A DNA stretch of 64,000 nucleotides. It comes from a phage. Both the position numbers and the translations under genes were made by a program. The notes beneath the pieces were generated by a model. That model saw nothing but the letters and a program-made list of their open reading frames with translations, searched no databases and had not been told where the DNA came from. The number at the start of each line of letters is the position of its first letter. Positions within the stretch are counted from its first letter, which is position 1. The stretch lies in sequence record PZ019084.1, one strand, 5' to 3'. Shown here piece by piece: positions 2,148-64,000 of the stretch.

Positions 2148-2516
2148 TTATGCAACTTTAATCCAATTATCTAAATTTAATTCACCTTTGGCTTTCATTT
2201 TTTCAATCAAGAGGTCAGCGGTAATACGACCATTTTGATACCACGTAACATCTTCAGAGTAACCAGTTTCTTTATCTTCATAAGTCTCACAGCGAATTTT
2301 ACCAAGAATCAAAGTTTTTAATTCGTATGTATCTCCAGTAAAAAAGTTAGTTAACATTATTTTCCAAGAGAAATCATCAGAAGGACCTTCAGGAGTCATA
2401 CAATCTACGAATTCAAATTGTTCTTTATATAAATGCCACTGAAGTTCTTTAGTTTCGATAGCTTTATAGCCGTCGTGATCTTTACCTTTGATGTATGAGT
2501 TAAGATTGATTTTCAT
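2148..2516 (-). CDS. hypothetical early protein
   Basis: 122-aa ORF preceded by an early promoter (2544..2573) and an AAGGAG Shine-Dalgarno. Confidence 0.55.
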   Translation of the reverse strand: MKINLNSYIKGKDHDGYKAIETKELQWHLYKEQFEFVDCMTPEGPSDDFSWKIMLTNFFTGDTYELKTLILGKIRCETYEDKETGYSEDVTWYQNGRITADLLIEKMKAKGELNLDNWIKVA

Positions 2517-2543
2517 TTTATTCTCCTTTGTTTGTGTAAGATA

Positions 2544-2573
2544 ATACTATCACAAAGGAACCATACTGTAAAC
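2544..2573 (-). promoter_or_regulatory. T4-type early promoter (-35 GTTTAC, 18-nt spacer, -10 TAGTAT)
   Basis: Minus strand reads GTTTAC..N18..TAGTAT immediately upstream of the 2516 start. Confidence 0.6.
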
Positions 2574-2593
2574 AACTTTGTGCAATCTTTGGA

Positions 2594-2625
2594 AAATAAA
2601 AAAAAAAGGACTCCCGAAGGAGTCC
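2594..2625 (-). terminator. rho-independent terminator (GGACUCC-CGAA-GGAGUCC hairpin plus U-run)
   Basis: Perfect 7-bp stem with CGAA loop followed on the minus strand by a run of about 10 U; located just after the stop of ORF 2631..2849. Confidence 0.7.
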
Positions 2626-2630
2626 TCAAC

Positions 2631-2849
2631 TTATGCTTTCTGCTTACCAAAACGAGAAGCATCATCTCGAAGAACCGCACGTGCTCGACGCATGATCTTC
2701 TCAACAGTTTGATTGATACGAGAGTTCGACCCACGCTTGTAGCCAGCGCGTTTAGAATCACCAACTTTCTTTTCAACTGCTTTCTTTGCTTTAACTTGTT
2801 TTGCCATTATAAATTCTCTTTTAAATGAAAATGCAGGACTTATTGGCAT
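2631..2849 (-). CDS. small lysine/arginine-rich basic protein (alternative start at 2807 gives 58 aa)
   Basis: 72-aa ORF, highly basic (MAKQVKAKKAVEKKVGDSKRAGYKRG...), terminator directly downstream. Confidence 0.5.
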   Translation of the reverse strand: MPISPAFSFKREFIMAKQVKAKKAVEKKVGDSKRAGYKRGSNSRINQTVEKIMRRARAVLRDDASRFGKQKA

Positions 2850-3203
2850 TGCCTGCGCAAGCCCTCAAGGGGAACATAGGTTTTGGATATTTAACGACAG
2901 GATAACCATAAACCCGTCATCATACCTTATAGCTCTTATCTGTTGCACACCGTTAGCTTAAAGGTTCCGGGTCCGATTTCTCGAGGATAAGATATATACT
3001 GATGGATATATAGGCCTTGAGGCGTACTCCCGATTGGCCATCACCTCGGGGTAGCATGCACTTGCCGCTATAAGAATAACATTCAAGAGGTACACCGTAA
3101 AACTGCCGGGGTCTTAAAACTATAATGATTCGCAAATCATTAATCAGACAGTTCGACGGCTCCTCGTTTTAACTTCACACTAAGGCAGTGACTCTCCAAT
3201 AAA

Positions 3204-3452
3204 TTACTTCAGTGTTACCACAAAGTGACGAACTGCTTTTCGTGCGGCAGAAGCCAAAGGCTTAGCATATTTAAGTTCATCTTTTTCCTGAAGCTCAGCA
3301 GCTAATGCAGTTTGAGCGGGATTCAGATGTTTGAAATAACGCAGGATTTCAAGAGCTTCGGCTTCAACATCAATAGATGCGCCATAGTTTTCGTGACCAT
3401 TATTCCATGCGTTTCGTTGCAGTTCAAGAGCGTGTTGTAATTGTTTAATCAT
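3204..3452 (-). CDS. rIII: rIII lysis-inhibition accessory protein
   Basis: 82 aa; sequence MIKQLQHALELQRNAWNNGHENYG... matches T4 rIII from memory, and sits next to gene 31 as in T4. Confidence 0.85.
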   Translation of the reverse strand: MIKQLQHALELQRNAWNNGHENYGASIDVEAEALEILRYFKHLNPAQTALAAELQEKDELKYAKPLASAARKAVRHFVVTLK

Positions 3453-3599
3453 TTAAAAATTCTCGTTAGAGATTAAAACTCGGTAGTCACGTTCTTCTGA
3501 ATTTCATCTTCTTTCGACAGATCTCTCAGTTGTAGACTACCACGTAGAATTGTTCGGTTAACTTATTATTCCGACACCCAATTCATATTATTATTTATA

Positions 3600-3935
3600 T
3601 CACTTATAAAGACACGGAATAGCTTTATAGTGACAGGTAACAAATTTTTGTTTAATTTCTTTTGGCTGCTTAAGACCCAGAGCTACAAAAGGATGCGGAA
3701 CGTTTCGAATTTGACCAACTGGAAGAGAAGTCAAATCACCAACTTCGCAGAAACCTTCAGGAACATCAGGACCAACAGAGTGAATTACACACAGTTCGGG
3801 AACTTCACCTTGAACACGTTTACCGATAATAAGTCCTGATTCTGTAACTTCTTCATCACCGGCTTGTGCAGGTTCAGAAACTAAAATAACATATTCACCG
3901 ACAGCACGAATTGGTAGCTGTTGTACTTCAGACAT
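3600..3935 (-). CDS. 31: gp31 co-chaperonin (GroES analogue for capsid folding)
   Basis: 111 aa, same length as T4 gp31; adjacent to rIII. Confidence 0.85.
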
Positions 3936-3991
3936 CGTTTTTCCTTTTTGTTAACAGATGAGTTAATAATAACAAATAATTCTTAAAGCAT

Positions 3992-4300
3992 TTATTTACC
4001 AATAAATTGAAGCAAATGCTCAACTTTCATACCATTAACGGAAATCAATTTGTTAATAGAAAAACCTCGCCATGCACCAAGTTCAACATCAAATACTGGA
4101 ATCATATCAGTAGATTCTTTCCGAGTAGATTCAGTCAATTTACCGGTTTGCATGGTTGGCATAAAGTCAGCATCGCGAGTACCTTTCATAGTACGAATAG
4201 TACCATCAGACTTTTCAAAAACCACGTTTGAAATACCCATGGACAATTTAGTTTTCAAAATTTCACGAATTGCTACTTTTTGTTCAGTCGTCAGTTTCAT
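3992..4300 (-). CDS. hypothetical early protein (31.1-like position)
   Basis: 102-aa ORF between gene 31 and cd. Confidence 0.5.
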   Translation of the reverse strand: MKLTTEQKVAIREILKTKLSMGISNVVFEKSDGTIRTMKGTRDADFMPTMQTGKLTESTRKESTDMIPVFDVELGAWRGFSINKLISVNGMKVEHLLQFIGK

Positions 4301-4537: not shown

Positions 4538-5118
4538 TATTCACCACAGAATTCGTTGATATTTTCCCAGTTTAACTTATTCAAGTTTTTCTTAGGAACA
4601 TTAAACACTTCAATACCTGCATTTCGCAGAATATCATCCCAGCCAGGTTTATTCTTATCGTATGTTTCGCAATAAACCAGCTTTTTAATTCCAGATTGAG
4701 CTATGGCTTTTGCACAATCTGGGCAAGGAGAAAGTGTTACATACATAGTAGCACCTTCAATTGAAGAACCGTTTCGCGCAGCAAACAAAATTGCATTTAG
4801 CTCAGCATGAATTTCATTTTTAGACGACCATTCAGAGTGAGCGCCGCGATGTTCTTTCGCCAAAACAAAACGATCAGTTGAACCAAACGATACACATTCG
4901 GGCTTATGACCTTGAATGATAGTATGTTTAGGTTTATTCAACAACCAACCTTGCTCGGCAGCATAATCGCAGCAGTTCACACCACCTGCCGGAGAACCAT
5001 TATATCCGGTAGAAATAATACGTCCATTCTTTTCAATTACTGCTCCTACCTTCCAGGAGCAACATTTGGATTCTTGTGATACTAAATATGCAATTTGAAG
5101 TACTGTACTCGCTTTCAT
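4537..5118 (-). CDS. cd: dCMP deaminase
   Basis: 193 aa, same as T4 Cd; zinc-binding cytidine-deaminase motifs HAE...PCPDC present. Confidence 0.9.
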   Translation of the reverse strand: MKASTVLQIAYLVSQESKCCSWKVGAVIEKNGRIISTGYNGSPAGGVNCCDYAAEQGWLLNKPKHTIIQGHKPECVSFGSTDRFVLAKEHRGAHSEWSSKNEIHAELNAILFAARNGSSIEGATMYVTLSPCPDCAKAIAQSGIKKLVYCETYDKNKPGWDDILRNAGIEVFNVPKKNLNKLNWENINEFCGE

Positions 5119-28266: not shown

Positions 28267-31200
28267 ATGGCTACTTTAAAACAAATACAATTTAAAAGAA
28301 GCAAAACCGCAGGTGCACGTCCTGCTGCTTCAGTATTAGCCGAAGGTGAATTGGCTATAAACTTAAAAGATAGAACAATTTTTACTAAAGACGATTTAGG
28401 AAATATCATTGATCTGGGTTTTGCTAAAGGCGGGCAGGTTGATGGAAATATCACTCAAACTGGTGATTATTTACAAAATGGAACATATAATCTTAATGGA
28501 AACCAGTTTGTTTATGCAGGAAAATATATTGAATTTTTACCTAAAACAGCTGGTAATGGCGCTTGGGCAAATCAACACCTAAATAAAGCCCCTATCTTTA
28601 CAGATTTAAGTTCAACTACTTCTACTTCAGAATACCATCCGCTAATTAAGCAGCGTTATAAAGATGGGACTTTTTCTGTTGGCACGTTAGTAAACGAAGG
28701 AAGTTTTAAAATTCATTATATCGATGAAACCGGCGATTCGAAATATTGGACGTTTCGACGTGACGGTGGATTTGTTGTTGATGCAGGAAGTTTAACAGTA
28801 ACAAAAGGAAATATTTCTGCTTCTGGTAATATTAATTCAGCTACTGGGATAGTTTCTGCTCCACAGATTAATACAAAAACTATAGTTTTTGATACAAAAG
28901 CATTCGGACAATATGATTCACAATCATTAGTTCAATATGTTTATCCTGGAACAGGTGAAGAAAATGGTATAAACTATCTTCGTAAAGTTCGAGCTAAATC
29001 AGGCGGAACTATTTACCATGAAATTGCTTCTGCGCAGACCGGTAAGAATGATGAAATTTCTTGGTGGACCGGAAACTCGCTTACCACTAAATTAATGGGT
29101 CTTCGTAATGATGGCGCAATGGTATTACGTCGTTCGCTTGCTATTGGCACAATTACCACTGATGAAAATACCAATAACTATGGCTCTCCTACTCCAATGG
29201 GAGAAAGATATATTGCTTTGGGTGATGCTGCAACCGGTTTAAAATATATTAAGCAAGGTGTTTATGATTTGGTAGGTAATTGGAATTCTGTTGCTTCTAT
29301 TACTCCTGATAGTTTCCGTAGTACTCGCAAAGGTTTATTTGGACGTTCAGAAGACCAAGGCGCTACATGGAACATGCCTGGAAACAACGCCGCGCTTTTA
29401 TCGGTTCAAACACAAGCTGATGGAAACACTGCTGGTGACGGTCAAACCCACATTGGATATAATTCTGGCGGTAAAATGAACCATTATTTCCGTGGTACAG
29501 GTCAGATGAATATCAATACCCAACAAGGTATGGAAGTTAACCCGGGTATTTTGAAATTGGTAACCGGTGCTAACAGTATTAGCTTTAATGCCGCAACTGG
29601 AAATATTAATTCTACATTAGCTTTTCGTCTTAATAAAGGCATAATTATTGATGGATCTGATAATCAGGGATTCCAGTTTAACGCCCCGACGGCTGCAGAT
29701 GGTACTAGAAGTATATACTGGAATAGTGGTACTCGCGAAGGTCAAAACAAAAACCCTGTTACAGTTAAAGTGTGGGGTAATTCATTTAATGCCAGCGGTG
29801 GAACAGATAGACAAACTGTATTTGAAGTTTCTGACTCTCAAGGATATTATTTTTATGCTCAACGCACTACTCCTGCATCAGGTCAAACAGTAGGTCCGGT
29901 TAACTTTAAATTTAACGGAACTGTTGAAACAGGCCATATCATAGGCCTTGGAAATATAAGTGCCTCCGGTACAGGTTCTTTTGGTGGCAATGTTACCATG
30001 TCTAACGGTTTGTTTGTCCAAGGTGGTTCTTCTATTACTGGACAAGTTAAAATAGGCGGAACTGCTGATGCATTAAGAATTTGGAATGCTGAATACGGTG
30101 CTATTTTCCGTCGTTCAGAAAGTAATCTTTATATTATCCCGACTCCTAAAGATGCTGGAGAATCAGGTGGTATAAGTAATCTTAGACCATTTATAATAGA
30201 ACTGAACACTGGCACGGTTAAAATGTCGCATGATGTTCATTTAGGAGATTCCGGATCTGGTACAGGATTATTACAAGTAAGTAATAGTCTTAAAACTATT
30301 AAAATGATATGTCCAGTAACTATTAATGAACGTAATGCAGCGCTTACTCTAGATTCTCCTTCATCTTCTTCTGCTAATTATTTGCAGGGTTCTAAAGCTG
30401 GAACTAGATCGTGGTATGTTGGTCTTGGTGGTGCTGGAAATGATTTATCACTTTATAGCCAATCTTATGGACATGGTCTTGTTATAAGTGATAATTTCGT
30501 GTCAATCACTAAACCCTTTAAAGTCGGAAATGCCCAACTAGGAACTGACGGTAATATTACCAACGGTTCTGGTAATTTTGCTAACTTAAACACCACGCTA
30601 AATCGTAAAGTTAATTCTGGATTTATTACTTATGGAGCAACTGCTGGATGGTATAAGTTTGCAACAGTAACAATGCCACAATCCACTTCAACAGTCTTCT
30701 TTAAAATAGTTGGAGGTTCTGGATTTAATAGCGGAATATTCACCCAATGTAATATTGCTGAAATTGTTTTACGTACTAGTAATGAAAGACCTTCTGACTT
30801 AAATGCTGTATTATACACAAGAACAACTGGAATGTATAGCGCAGCATTTAGAAATATTGCAGTTAACAATGTCTCTGGAGATACATATGACATTTATGTT
30901 TATGCCGGAACATATTGTAATCAACTAGTTTGTGAATGGTCATGTACCGAAAATGCTACTGTTAGCGTTATTGGTATTAACTCATCTACGCAGTCGCCTG
31001 TGGATGCTCTTCCAGATACAGCAGTTGATGGGCAAGTTGCTAATGTTCTTAATAACTTGGTTGATCGTGGTAAAGTTAAGCGTTATGAAGCTGATTCTGA
31101 AATAGCTATCAATAGTCAAACTGGTATTCGTATTAAAAGCAATGGCGATAAAACTGGTTCTGTTGCTACAATGCTACGAAATGATGGCGGTAGTTTTTAT

Positions 31201-32055
31201 ATTCTATTTACAGATAAAAATGCCACCGATGGTGAAGCAACTGTTAACGGTGATTGGAATAGTAAGCGTCCTTTCGCAATTAACTTAACAACCGGCGAAG
31301 TACTAATGAATAATGGCATAGCTGTTCGCAGCGCAGCTTTATTCTATGATAGTATAAATGTCAAAGATAATGGTTCTATTAACTTTGATAAGTCTGGTGC
31401 TAACCCGAGAAATATGAGAATATTTCATGCTGGCGATGCTTCTCGCGGTAACCGCATTGAAATTGCAGATGAAACTAACTATATTGCTTACTTTGAAAAA
31501 ACTCCAGGTGGAGCTAACCGCTTTGTAGTAAATAATGCTACTATAGCTGGTGTTAACCAAATGAATTCATTTGGTATTAATATCAATAACGCACTTGGTG
31601 GAAATAGTATAGCATTTGGTGATAATGATACTGGAATTAAACAATCCGGTGACGGAATTCTTGATATCATTACTAACGCCGCACGCAGAATGAGATTCCA
31701 AACAGGTGACACCTATTCTGACATGAATATAAATGCCCCAAACGTTTATATTCGTTCTGATATTCGTTTGAAATCTAATTTCAGACCTATTGAAAATGCT
31801 CTTGAAAAGGTTGAACAGCTTGATGGTTTAATCTATGATAAAGCTGACTATATAGGCGGTGAAATTGTTCAGACTGAAGCGGGTATTGTGGCTCAAACAC
31901 TGCAAGATGTTTTACCAGAAGCAGTTCGTGAAGTTGAAGATATTAAGGGTAATAAAATACTCACTGTTTCTTCTCAATCCCAGATTGCTCTTCTAGTTGA
32001 AGCTGTGAAAACACTTTCTGCTCGTGTAAAAGAACTTGAATCTAAACTTATGTAA
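28267..32055 (+). CDS. 37: gp37 long tail fibre distal subunit with C-terminal intramolecular chaperone domain (about 31756..32052)
   Basis: 1262 aa; conserved N-terminal fibre region, then a C-terminal S-D-I-R-L-K motif followed by about 99 aa resembling the self-cleaving chaperone of endosialidase-type fibres. Confidence 0.9.
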   Translation: MATLKQIQFKRSKTAGARPAASVLAEGELAINLKDRTIFTKDDLGNIIDLGFAKGGQVDGNITQTGDYLQNGTYNLNGNQFVYAGKYIEFLPKTAGNGAWANQHLNKAPIFTDLSSTTSTSEYHPLIKQRYKDGTFSVGTLVNEGSFKIHYIDETGDSKYWTFRRDGGFVVDAGSLTVTKGNISASGNINSATGIVSAPQINTKTIVFDTKAFGQYDSQSLVQYVYPGTGEENGINYLRKVRAKSGGTIYHEIASAQTGKNDEISWWTGNSLTTKLMGLRNDGAMVLRRSLAIGTITTDENTNNYGSPTPMGERYIALGDAATGLKYIKQGVYDLVGNWNSVASITPDSFRSTRKGLFGRSEDQGATWNMPGNNAALLSVQTQADGNTAGDGQTHIGYNSGGKMNHYFRGTGQMNINTQQGMEVNPGILKLVTGANSISFNAATGNINSTLAFRLNKGIIIDGSDNQGFQFNAPTAADGTRSIYWNSGTREGQNKNPVTVKVWGNSFNASGGTDRQTVFEVSDSQGYYFYAQRTTPASGQTVGPVNFKFNGTVETGHIIGLGNISASGTGSFGGNVTMSNGLFVQGGSSITGQVKIGGTADALRIWNAEYGAIFRRSESNLYIIPTPKDAGESGGISNLRPFIIELNTGTVKMSHDVHLGDSGSGTGLLQVSNSLKTIKMICPVTINERNAALTLDSPSSSSANYLQGSKAGTRSWYVGLGGAGNDLSLYSQSYGHGLVISDNFVSITKPFKVGNAQLGTDGNITNGSGNFANLNTTLNRKVNSGFITYGATAGWYKFATVTMPQSTSTVFFKIVGGSGFNSGIFTQCNIAEIVLRTSNERPSDLNAVLYTRTTGMYSAAFRNIAVNNVSGDTYDIYVYAGTYCNQLVCEWSCTENATVSVIGINSSTQSPVDALPDTAVDGQVANVLNNLVDRGKVKRYEADSEIAINSQTGIRIKSNGDKTGSVATMLRNDGGSFYILFTDKNATDGEATVNGDWNSKRPFAINLTTGEVLMNNGIAVRSAALFYDSINVKDNGSINFDKSGANPRNMRIFHAGDASRGNRIEIADETNYIAYFEKTPGGANRFVVNNATIAGVNQMNSFGININNALGGNSIAFGDNDTGIKQSGDGILDIITNAARRMRFQTGDTYSDMNINAPNVYIRSDIRLKSNFRPIENALEKVEQLDGLIYDKADYIGGEIVQTEAGIVAQTLQDVLPEAVREVEDIKGNKILTVSSQSQIALLVEAVKTLSARVKELESKLM

Positions 32056-32056
32056 A

Positions 32057-32074
32057 AGAGGGCTTCGGCCCTCT
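32057..32074 (+). other. GC hairpin (AGAGGGC-UUCG-GCCCUCU) between genes 37 and 38
   Basis: Perfect 7-bp stem with UUCG loop; weak U-run, so more likely a partial terminator or RNA stability element. Confidence 0.45.
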
Positions 32075-32085
32075 AAGGATTTTTA

Positions 32086-32880
32086 ATGGCAATTGTAGGT
32101 GTTCCTGGCTGGATTGGTGAATCTGCCGTGAATGAAACTGGACAACGTTGGATGGATGCTGCAATGAAAGCAGTTCGTGTTTCAGTTCCTGGCTGGATGA
32201 GCTCAATGGCTGGGCAATCTAAAGAAGTATATTACAGTATTGGTGCTAGCAATTCTTATAATAAAGACACACTAATAAATTATCTCAAATCTCAAGGTAG
32301 TACTCCTGTTGTTGTTACTATTACTGGTAACTTAGTTTCTTCATCTGCAAGGCAACCTTGCTTAGATTTTCCTAGCTCATTAACTAATGCTTATGTAACG
32401 CTTATTATAAATGGCGGTGTAACAGTATACGGTCGCGGAGGACGCGGCGCGCAAGCGGGAAACCAGGCGGGTGAAGCTGGTGGTACTGCAATTAACAATG
32501 GTATAGGTACTCGTCTACGAATCACTAACAATGGAGCAATCGCCGGCGGCGGAGGTGGTGGTGGCGCCCAATCAACTGATAATGGGTGGGGAGGTAAATA
32601 TGTTTCTGGCGGGGGCGGCGGACGTCCTTTCGGAGCTGGTGGTAATAATGGAGCAAAAGCTCCGGGTGCATCAGCATCTTTAACATCTCCAGGCGCAGGC
32701 GGAAAAATGTATTCCGGCGTTGGATACTACGGCGGTGACGGTGGTAATGTTGGTGAACGAGGTAAGGATGCGGTTAGATTGAACGGCTATTCGAACTCAC
32801 CTGGCGCAGCAGGTAAAGCTGTTACTGGTAACGCACCAACTTGGACTAAAGTTGGTACAATATATGGTTCAAGAGTATAA
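32086..32880 (+). CDS. 38: gp38 receptor-binding adhesin, T2 type with glycine-rich motifs
   Basis: 264 aa with several poly-Gly blocks (GGGGGGGAQS, GGGGGRPFGAGG, GGDGGN) separating variable segments. T4 gp38 is a 183-aa chaperone instead. Confidence 0.8.
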   Translation: MAIVGVPGWIGESAVNETGQRWMDAAMKAVRVSVPGWMSSMAGQSKEVYYSIGASNSYNKDTLINYLKSQGSTPVVVTITGNLVSSSARQPCLDFPSSLTNAYVTLIINGGVTVYGRGGRGAQAGNQAGEAGGTAINNGIGTRLRITNNGAIAGGGGGGGAQSTDNGWGGKYVSGGGGGRPFGAGGNNGAKAPGASASLTSPGAGGKMYSGVGYYGGDGGNVGERGKDAVRLNGYSNSPGAAGKAVTGNAPTWTKVGTIYGSRV

Positions 32881-56593: not shown

Positions 56594-56794
56594 TCATTTT
56601 GAATGCTCTATAATTAATTTTAAGGCTTCTTCACTGACAAAAATTTCATCAAGACCTTCTTCTACACCCCAATCAACCACACGAAGCTGATTAGATAAGA
56701 GCTCACATACGAGCTCCTTGTCATAATTTTTAAATAGCTGGTCAATACGTTTCTTGTGGGCTTTCTTAAGTTGTCGTTTATTTAAACGAGCCAT
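56594..56794 (-). CDS. hypothetical protein
   Basis: 66-aa ORF. Confidence 0.45.
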   Translation of the reverse strand: MARLNKRQLKKAHKKRIDQLFKNYDKELVCELLSNQLRVVDWGVEEGLDEIFVSEEALKLIIEHSK

Positions 56795-57312
56795 TAATAA
56801 CCTCGGTCTTGGCGAGCGAAGTTTTCAGCATTTTTCAGATAATAAAGTTTAAAGATTTCTTCAGCCGTAAGACCGAGACCTTGGAACATGTTCAGAACGA
56901 AATGAAGAATATCAATCATTTCGAATTTAATTTCCAACTGGTCTTGTGGAGACAAATCAGTAATTAAAGTTTCACGACGTTCACCATGTTGAGCTTTCCA
57001 TGGCTTCCATACAGCAGATGCATCTTTTTCACCATTGCTCATACCACCAAGAGAAGTCAGAAGTTCGCGGAATTCATCATCAATATAATCTTTTTGATTA
57101 CGCAGCCAATCAACAACTTCGCCTGCAGTAGCCAAATCATCAGGATGACGGTTATATTCAGGTTTATCTTTAGCTAAACGAACCTGCAGAGATTTCTGCA
57201 TATCAAGCATAACCTGCAGCGGGTCTTTTTCATCACCGAGAATATCCCAGTATTCATTTTGAGCTTTATCAGCGCCTTCAATCAGTTGTGAACATTCATT
57301 AAAGTATGCCAT
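56794..57312 (-). CDS. 56: dCTPase/dUTPase (gp56)
   Basis: 172 aa from MAYFNECSQLIEGADKAQNEYWDILGD, matching T4 gp56; the ORF track adds 31 codons upstream. Confidence 0.85.
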   Translation of the reverse strand: MAYFNECSQLIEGADKAQNEYWDILGDEKDPLQVMLDMQKSLQVRLAKDKPEYNRHPDDLATAGEVVDWLRNQKDYIDDEFRELLTSLGGMSNGEKDASAVWKPWKAQHGERRETLITDLSPQDQLEIKFEMIDILHFVLNMFQGLGLTAEEIFKLYYLKNAENFARQDRGY

Positions 57313-57383
57313 TATTTTTCCTTTCAATTCATGGGTTAGTAGATTAATTATACAATAAATATATAAAGCAATAAGGAGGACAT

Positions 57384-57584
57384 ATGGTACAAAAATTAAT
57401 GGCACTTGTTAATGCCATAAAAGGTAATAAAAAACGTATAGCTTTTACTATTTCTGCTATGGTAGGAATTTTACTCTGGAATTTTGTTTTATCGCCAATT
57501 GCTATTGCTCATGGTGTTAATATTCCAGTAATTACTCTTGATACATTCGTAGATTTAGCATTTGCTTTAGTTGGGTTAATTTAA
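57384..57584 (+). CDS. small hydrophobic protein on the opposite strand between genes 56 and 61
   Basis: 66-aa ORF with a strong AAGGAGG Shine-Dalgarno 4 to 5 nt before the ATG; predicted transmembrane segments. Uncertain. Confidence 0.4.
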   Translation: MVQKLMALVNAIKGNKKRIAFTISAMVGILLWNFVLSPIAIAHGVNIPVITLDTFVDLAFALVGLI

Positions 57585-61695: not shown

Positions 61696-62058
61696 TTAAA
61701 AGAATTTAAATTTTTTCTTTGACCTTTTATTAAATGCATCTTGTAGTTGCATTGTAATACATTTTTCTACATGAGGAGCTAACTCAGCTTTTCTTTCTTG
61801 GTCAAGAACAGCAAAGTCCATTACGACTTTTCCATCAACCCAATCTAATTTTGTCACATACACAATGTGTGTAGAACCATCTTCTAGTTTAATGACAATC
61901 TCCTGGATAACATTTTCCATAGCGGATTTAATTATCTTAAGAGACTCATTAAAAAGACGTTCTTTTCTTTCTTCTTCCCCCTCCGAAGAGGGGGATTCAT
62001 CGATAATTTCTAGATCTAAATCTAAATCATCTTTATTCATTAAATTCTTCCATATCAC
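61696..62058 (-). CDS. 40: gp40 head-vertex assembly chaperone
   Basis: 120-aa ORF between 41 and uvsX. Confidence 0.65.
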   Translation of the reverse strand: MIWKNLMNKDDLDLDLEIIDESPSSEGEEERKERLFNESLKIIKSAMENVIQEIVIKLEDGSTHIVYVTKLDWVDGKVVMDFAVLDQERKAELAPHVEKCITMQLQDAFNKRSKKKFKFF

Positions 62059-63214
62059 TTAACTGATCTAGGTCAGTTTCTAAATCAGCTGCTGATTTAC
62101 TTTTACTTTCTGGAGATTTAAATTTTTCAACCTTTGAGTTAATCAATTCATCAACTTCAGCTTCAACAATTTCATTACTATCAATAGCACCTAACTGATA
62201 AGCACGTTTAATAGCATCTCGGAATGGCTGATGCTTAAATAAAGGACCCCAGAATGTAGTGCAATTGGTATCTTTTGCGCGCCAAGATTTTTCTTCGCGA
62301 ATCATCTCGCCGGTTTCTTCGTCAAGAAATTCACGAGCATACCAGCCATTTTTAGGTTTTACTACAAATCCTAATTCAAGAGCCATATCTAACAATCCAG
62401 AATAAGGATCGATACCACCGTCAAATTTAACATCAATAAAGAATTTACTTTTTTCTTTAACGGTACGAGATTTTTCTACATTTAGAACAAATTGATACCC
62501 CTGAAGATCAGAACCATCTTTAATCTGGCGCTTGCCGATAATGAATACAGTATCAGCCGAATACATTACGCCTGTACCACCTGTCATCACGGTTTTACTA
62601 AACATTTCAATTGTTTCAATTGTATGGTTAACCGCAACACATGGAATGTTTTTAATACTAAAATAAGGAGTAACAATACGGAATAATGACTTCAGTGATT
62701 TAGCACGAGTCATATCTGCCACAGATTTTTCATTCAAGGCATCTTCCGTTTCTTTCTTAGAAGCCATATTACCAATTGAGTCGATGAATACAATAACTTT
62801 TTCGCCGCGCTCAATAGCTTCAAGCTGATTCACCATATCAATTTTCAGCTGTTCAACTGACTGGATTGGTGTATGAATTACTCGTTCAGGGTCAACTCCC
62901 ATGGATCGCAAATAAGCTGGAGTAATACCAAATTCACTATCATAAAATAGACAAACCGCGTCAGGATATTTGTTCAAATACGCCGCAACCATAGTCAAAG
63001 ACATATTTGATTTAAAGTGTTTAGAAGGACCTGCAAAAATGGTTAAACCAGACTGCATACCACCATCAATCGCACCTGAAATAGCGATATTGAGCATTGG
63101 AATTTTTGTACGGATTACATCCTTTTCATTAAAGAATTTAGATGTAGTCAGTTCAGCAGTCATTTTAGAAGTGGAAGCTTTAATCAAACGGGATTTTAAA
63201 TCTGCAATAGACAT
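62033..63214 (-). CDS. uvsX: UvsX recombinase (RecA-like)
   Basis: 393-aa ORF closely matching T4 UvsX throughout, including the acidic C-terminus. Confidence 0.9.
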   Translation of the reverse strand: MSIADLKSRLIKASTSKMTAELTTSKFFNEKDVIRTKIPMLNIAISGAIDGGMQSGLTIFAGPSKHFKSNMSLTMVAAYLNKYPDAVCLFYDSEFGITPAYLRSMGVDPERVIHTPIQSVEQLKIDMVNQLEAIERGEKVIVFIDSIGNMASKKETEDALNEKSVADMTRAKSLKSLFRIVTPYFSIKNIPCVAVNHTIETIEMFSKTVMTGGTGVMYSADTVFIIGKRQIKDGSDLQGYQFVLNVEKSRTVKEKSKFFIDVKFDGGIDPYSGLLDMALELGFVVKPKNGWYAREFLDEETGEMIREEKSWRAKDTNCTTFWGPLFKHQPFRDAIKRAYQLGAIDSNEIVEAEVDELINSKVEKFKSPESKSKSAADLETDLDQLSDMEEFNE

Positions 63215-63291
63215 TCATTTTTTCCATAGGCATCATTATATTTTCCTCACTGGTTAAAGATAGGGTAATTATAACACAATAAATTTAGGCA

Positions 63292-64000
63292 TTAATCAAC
63301 TGCTATTGGATGAATAGCATTAAACTTATGAAACGCTTCTGATTTTTCTTTGCGCGAAACACACATACGAAGAACCTTTAATGGCTCGTCTTCTTCACCT
63401 AACGATTTTCTCTTTTCAATATTCGATGTTTTCCAACGAGCTTGCTCTGGAAACTCTCTATTGATTTGCTCAAGAGCTCTATTATGTTTTGAATTACTAC
63501 GAATTGAACTACATCCACCGGGAGCCTGTGCTTTTCCAGATACAACCAGATATTTGAACAAAGCCAAATGCGGATAACCTTGATTAATTAAATTGAGAAA
63601 TGCATACATATCTTCGCATAAATCAATTTTTCCATACCCAATTTGTTCTGTTGTAAGTTTTCCAAGGTCATACCAGGTATTCGTGAATCCATATGAATTT
63701 TCACGATAATTACCCCAAGATGAAGTAATTTTAAAAATTGGTAGACGAGCATGACCATGATAATACCCACAATCCATGGCATCTTCAACGTATTGAATCA
63801 ATTCATAGAACTGTTCACGAGTTAATTGATTAATTTTATCTACGCAGCGACGATCATCTTTCTTTCGCATTGAACTCATACGAATAGTAGTATCATCATC
63901 AATCATCCAGATTCGTTGACCTGCATACATATCAGTAATTGCTTTACGAGTACCAGCAATTCCGTTAACATCATCAGGAATAGTTATAATTTTAGCTCTA
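63292..64000 (-). CDS. glycosyltransferase-like protein in the T4 beta-gt position; stop at 63292, N-terminus beyond the window end
   Basis: Frame open to position 64000; DDD acidic motif (IWMIDDD); no resemblance to my recollection of T4 beta-glucosyltransferase. Confidence 0.4.
   Translation of the reverse strand, partial: RAKIITIPDDVNGIAGTRKAITDMYAGQRIWMIDDDTTIRMSSMRKKDDRRCVDKINQLTREQFYELIQYVEDAMDCGYYHGHARLPIFKITSSWGNYRENSYGFTNTWYDLGKLTTEQIGYGKIDLCEDMYAFLNLINQGYPHLALFKYLVVSGKAQAPGGCSSIRSNSKHNRALEQINREFPEQARWKTSNIEKRKSLGEEDEPLKVLRMCVSRKEKSEAFHKFNAIHPIAVD

Follow-up and report, generated by a model that had tools for sequence, protein, structure and literature searches.

The gene next to uvsX at the end of a T2/T6-like phage sequence is very probably a T2/T6-type beta-glucosyl-HMC-alpha-glucosyltransferase gene

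Which gene occupies the position next to uvsX, where T4 encodes its beta-glucosyltransferase (b-gt), in the phage of sequence record PZ019084.1? The stretch of this record that we analysed (64,000 nt; hereafter the window) ends within an open reading frame (ORF) that an earlier note had described as a sugar transferase gene of non-T4 type, truncated by the window. Positions 63292–63999 very probably hold the C-terminal 235 of the 280 codons of a T2/T6-type beta-glucosyl-HMC-alpha-glucosyltransferase gene from a T2/T6-like Tequatrovirus. This gene, here called ba-gt, also goes by the names g-gt, ggt and TAGT. Gene, locus and function have all been described before, and ba-gt is what T4-like coliphages usually have at this position.

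The frame at 63292–63999 on the minus strand consists of 235 sense codons, ends with a TAA at 63292–63294 and is free of stops up to the window edge, so the ba-gt ORF runs off the window; the remaining two minus-strand frames over 63292–64000 contain many stops. The coding signal of 63292–63999 was far beyond chance. In T2, UGKSEcP1 and SHFML-26 the homologous gene spans 843 nt (280 amino acids) and overlaps gene 42 by 4 nt. From this length, 45 N-terminal codons (135 nt) of ba-gt lie beyond the window end, and the truncation described earlier is real. Among the missing residues is the first strand of the fold that binds the nucleotide. What the window holds is the 3′ 708 nt of the gene (codons 46–280 and the TAA), as indicated by the open frame, by homology and by a match to PHROG 842. 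An ATG-started ORF of 212 amino acids at 63292–63930 reflects only the first ATG inside the window and not the true start.

Searching 50,697 phage records with the fragment (tblastn) yielded matches in 688, with 227 records at 99% identity or higher and 245 at 95–99%. These matches were overwhelmingly to Tequatrovirus and, where named, were annotated as beta-glucosyl-HMC-alpha-glucosyltransferase or glucosyl transferase. Over its 235 residues the fragment was 100% identical to the ba-gt proteins of UGKSEcP1, A6-6 and other Tequatroviruses. It shared 232/235 residues (98.7%; residues 46–280) with the T2 enzyme and 231/235 with the T6 reading frame, and it matched PHROG 842 (beta-glucosyl-HMC-alpha-glucosyltransferase) with an E value of 1e-67 over profile positions 52–269 of 270, with residues 46–280 covered. 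The suggestion that this might be a T2/T6-like beta-alpha-glucosyltransferase was thus borne out. In full-length numbering, three substitutions separate the window from T2 ba-gt (PV648363, XUQ82737.1) over residues 46–280 (K92R, I100V and P251S), and four separate it from T6 ba-gt (MH550421; D54G, K92R, I100V and R107H). T2 also resembles the window in the stop, in the spacer that follows ba-gt (1 of 77 nt differs) and in flanking gene order; T6 is the genetically validated member, and its locus is arranged as in the window. The final 8 kb of the window were 97.7% identical to Shigella phage SHFML-26, from which we conclude that the source of the window is a T2/T6-like Tequatrovirus of the ordinary kind.

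At the family level, a relative was used to supply the missing N-terminus. The full-length UGKSEcP1 protein, which equals the window fragment over the common 235 residues, matched PF20691, the Pfam model of the GT-A-like family TAGT (TET-associated glycosyltransferase), over model positions 2–205 of 205; its 38.8 bits exceed the gathering cut-off, which is 27.5 bits. The window fragment by itself, lacking the first 45 residues, therefore stayed below this cut-off at 20.5 bits. We also looked for a full-length match to a family other than glycosyltransferases; the result was instead TAGT above threshold, together with a GT-A-like structural model (see below). Pfam additionally returned ‘RNA_binding’ (PF01877; E value of 0.1, 13 bits where the cut-off is 26.9), which was dismissed as noise.

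On the minus strand, ba-gt is followed by a 77-nt spacer (63215–63291) and by the uvsX recombinase gene (62033–63214; 393 amino acids; PHROG 97, E value of 1e-109), annotated as uvsX or recombinase in T2, T4 and T6 records. The two genes share a strand and ba-gt is therefore upstream (5′) of uvsX in the sense of transcription, not downstream of it as had been stated. Beyond uvsX the T-even order continues: gene 40, the gene 41 helicase, dmd, sp and the gene 61 primase. For T2 and T6 the order is 42, ba-gt, uvsX, 40, 41, and that of the window agrees as far as it is visible: the ba-gt–uvsX side of the locus is seen, and gene 42 falls past the window end in every relative examined. Consistent with this synteny, a search of the 64-kb window for a-gt and gene 42 found no homologue. 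In SHFML-26, the closest relative, a-gt lies ~11 kb beyond ba-gt, a location that falls outside the window.

The spacer itself is identical in T2 and T6 save for 1 nt. It cannot be aligned with T4, in which segA occupies the place before uvsX. The minus strand of the spacer carries AATGCCTAAA-N12-TATAAT, which resembles a MotA-dependent T4 middle promoter and is a candidate for one. A generic scan for sigma-70 promoters and terminators over 62900–64000 gave fewer sites than shuffled sequences and none in the spacer, and was uninformative.

Given its position alone, the ORF could have been a T4-type beta-glucosyltransferase (GT-B fold, PF09198), since T4 b-gt lies between gene 42 and uvsX; such an enzyme would attach a single beta-glucose directly to hmC. 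The two enzymes have more in common than this chromosomal slot, namely the UDP-glucose donor, the beta linkage and hmC-containing phage DNA as the target (PMC6024577). They differ in fold and family (GT-B and PF09198 for T4, GT-A-like and TAGT for the window enzyme) and in acceptor, which is bare hmC for the T4 enzyme and alpha-glucosyl-hmC for that of ba-gt. In sequence we found no similarity: the best BLASTP E value against T4 beta-glucosyltransferase was 2.8, in line with the earlier impression that the ORF does not resemble it. T4 b-gt matched PF09198 with an E value of 8e-97, but PF20691 TAGT was the only family matched by the full-length protein that stands in for the window fragment; in the Pfam search neither the window fragment nor the full-length relative matched PF09198. 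The probability that the gene is of T4 type is practically negligible.

A second gene of the T4 kind beside ba-gt was likewise not seen. The 77 nt between ba-gt and uvsX are too few for a b-gt-like gene or for segA, the homing endonuclease gene that the T4 locus also has and that the window’s locus does not. Neither T4 b-gt (tblastn) nor the b-gt-like protein of Escherichia phage vB_EcoM-G3F8 matched anywhere in the 64-kb window, and in T2, T6, UGKSEcP1 and SHFML-26 the only gene between gene 42 and uvsX is ba-gt. Some Tequatroviruses, among them vB_EcoM-G3F8 itself (2153–4077), have a b-gt-like gene with 55% identity to T4 b-gt between ba-gt and uvsX, and annotations of Enterobacter, Citrobacter and Cronobacter phages show the same pairing. 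In phages with both genes, alpha-glucosyl, beta-glucosyl and gentiobiosyl hmC might occur side by side; the short spacer excludes this arrangement from the window.

Codon comparisons bear on whether ba-gt is maintained. Across the 705 nt common to the window fragment and each relative, differences from UGKSEcP1 (18) and SHFML-26 (20) were all synonymous, and those from T2 and T6 comprised 31 synonymous with 3 non-synonymous and 33 synonymous with 4 non-synonymous, respectively. As the differences are almost all synonymous, we conclude that ba-gt is under strong purifying selection. One alternative is that this copy is a non-functional remnant, broken within the N-terminal 45 codons that lie beyond the window end, in a phage whose DNA carries alpha-glucosyl-hmC only; in the T6 record MH550421, codon 10 of the ba-gt frame is indeed a TAG. 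We regard a remnant as highly improbable. All 235 visible codons are intact, the T2, UGKSEcP1 and SHFML-26 homologues have the full 280-amino-acid frame, and divergence from the closest relatives is exclusively synonymous, unlike that of a gene in decay, which itself makes a disrupted N-terminus unlikely. The ba-gt copy of the PZ019084.1 phage is presumably intact at its N-terminus and active.

The TAG in the T6 record lies at 4951–4953 on the minus strand (MIQFVIPSY*RVG...), and the coding sequence is annotated from Met20 (786 nt versus 843). It is possible that this is a nonsense mutation of the stock, an error in the record, or a sign that the protein functions without its first beta-strand. 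Gentiobiosylation is highest in T6, the phage from which this record comes.

The DDD motif noticed earlier in the ORF is present, as WMIDDDTT, at 63892–63900 on the minus strand (residues 79–81 of the full-length protein, 34–36 of the fragment), and it was invariant in an alignment of 8 homologues, the most distant of them at 48% identity. An acidic segment, D171-L-C-E174-D175 (63610–63624, minus strand), was invariant at D171, L172, E174 and D175 and variable at 173. The other invariants of the 8-sequence alignment were H126-G-H128, N146-S-x-G-F-T-N-T153 and G200-K. T2 and the window both have the DDD, HGH, NSYGFTNT and D-L-x-E-D motifs.

For the fold, we modelled a full-length relative 99% identical to the fragment with AlphaFold2. 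A search of a collection of 5.8 billion proteins returned nine clusters only, the lowest at 46% identity (Serratia phage PS2), so the input alignment was shallow (8 rows) and the model of moderate quality (pLDDT 73.4, pTM 0.73), with residues 1–125 good and residues 132–138, 192–211 and 240–247 poor. The model alternates strands and helices, and the DDD starts at the final residue of strand 74–79. This predicted fold matches GT-A glycosyltransferases, which have a Rossmann-like alpha/beta/alpha nucleotide-binding domain with a DxD motif after a central strand. Searching the Protein Data Bank by sequence with the full-length relative gave chance matches only (E values above 0.7), and no structure of the family was detectable in this way.

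In the mechanism that we propose, alpha-glucosyltransferase would put an alpha-linked glucose on 5-hydroxymethylcytosine in the phage DNA after replication, and the ba-gt product would then add a second glucose from UDP-glucose to the first in beta-1,6 linkage, producing gentiobiosyl-hmC. As UDP-alpha-glucose gives a beta linkage, the reaction would proceed with inversion at the anomeric centre of the donor sugar and with an acidic residue as base. The DDD at 79–81, which from general knowledge of GT-A enzymes we take to be their DxD motif, most likely binds both the UDP diphosphate and a divalent metal. A conserved acid, for which E174 and D175 are candidates, most likely serves as the base; the D171–D175 segment may be regarded as a candidate catalytic base or acceptor-binding site. 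The double sugar would shield phage DNA from defences directed at hmC with a single glucose, the Brig1 glycosylase for example.

TET-associated glycosyltransferases are presumed to glycosylate bare hmC directly, and the PF20691 model is named for enzymes linked to TET/5hmC pathways. The window gene might accordingly encode a TAGT transferase with a different job, acting on bare hmC or with another sugar donor rather than making gentiobiosyl-hmC; in T2, a near-identical enzyme goes with only about 5% gentiobiosyl-hmC (PMC6024577), which indicates that output in vivo is not fixed by protein sequence alone. We consider a different job very improbable, as 98–100% identity to the T2/T6 enzymes makes a change of donor or acceptor unlikely. 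T-even TAGT enzymes act on a sugar already on hmC, and they are partnered with the gp42 dCMP hydroxymethylase pathway and not with a TET dioxygenase. Transfer of glucose from UDP-glucose to alpha-glucosyl-hmC in beta-1,6 linkage is known for T6 from classical work (reviewed in PMC6024577), and deletion of ba-gt from T6 removes the second glucose specifically: alpha-glucosyl-hmC alone is left, gentiobiosyl-hmC is lost and sensitivity to the Brig1 glycosylase increases (PMC11078745). T6 without g-gt has been reported to contain about 75% alpha-glucosyl-hmC (bioRxiv 10.64898/2026.02.25.707755). In a 2026 survey, Tequatroviruses with a-gt and a TAGT gene syntenic to T4 b-gt had gentiobiosyl-hmC and no beta-glucosyl-hmC (PMC13390438), which also argues against a different job. 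The locus described here is exactly this situation of a TAGT gene at the b-gt position, seen for the TAGT side in the window. Our reading of it adds no new biology, an equivalent statement having been published for other Tequatroviruses (PMC13390438).

With the gene read as a T2/T6-type ba-gt, it marks the T2/T6 type of modification, that is, alpha-glucosyl-hmC and gentiobiosyl-hmC with no beta-glucosyl-hmC. This type in turn predicts sensitivity to modification-dependent defences such as restriction enzymes of the GmrSD and BrxU type and the Brig1 glycosylase. The earlier note had gone further in supposing that the ORF would set the hmC glycosylation pattern of the phage. By itself ba-gt does not set this pattern: alpha-gt is needed for the acceptor, and the proportion of gentiobiosyl-hmC ranges from about 5% in T2 to about 72% in T6 (PMC6024577, PMC11078745). 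As these two phages are 14-fold apart with ~98% identical enzymes, the extent of gentiobiosylation is not readable from sequence. There is a slight chance that substitutions at residues 54, 92, 100, 107 or 251, or in the N-terminus, tune the fraction of doubly glucosylated DNA. If they did, the commonest Tequatrovirus allele would give a level unlike those of both T2 and T6, and a comparison of alleles could show what sets the level.

That commonest allele among sequenced Tequatroviruses is the one in the window. At 90% identity or higher, ba-gt occurred in 473 records of the phage collection and T4-type b-gt in 29; the ‘non-T4’ state is thus the norm and T4 the exception. Homologues of ba-gt at 60–80% identity were found in about 200 phages of Klebsiella, Enterobacter, Salmonella and Proteus, and more distant ones in an Acinetobacter phage contig (a 44%-identical fragment) and in Serratia phage PS2 (a 46%-identical protein), so the family extends well beyond Tequatrovirus.

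Two further parts of the window touch on the T2/T6 likeness and on hmC metabolism. The genes at 28267–32880 on the plus strand encode the distal tail fibre gp37 (1262 amino acids) followed by gp38 (264 amino acids; PHROG 2056, host-specificity adhesin), an arrangement that we take to be that of T2/T6-type receptor binding and not of the T4 type; these tail-fibre genes agree with a DNA modification gene of T2/T6 type. The sole component of the hmC pathway inside the window is a homologue of the gene 56 dCTPase/dUTPase at 56794–57405 on the minus strand (PHROG 173, E value of 2e-46). Its listed ORF (203 amino acids, GTG start) is probably overextended, the profile match starting at residue 32.
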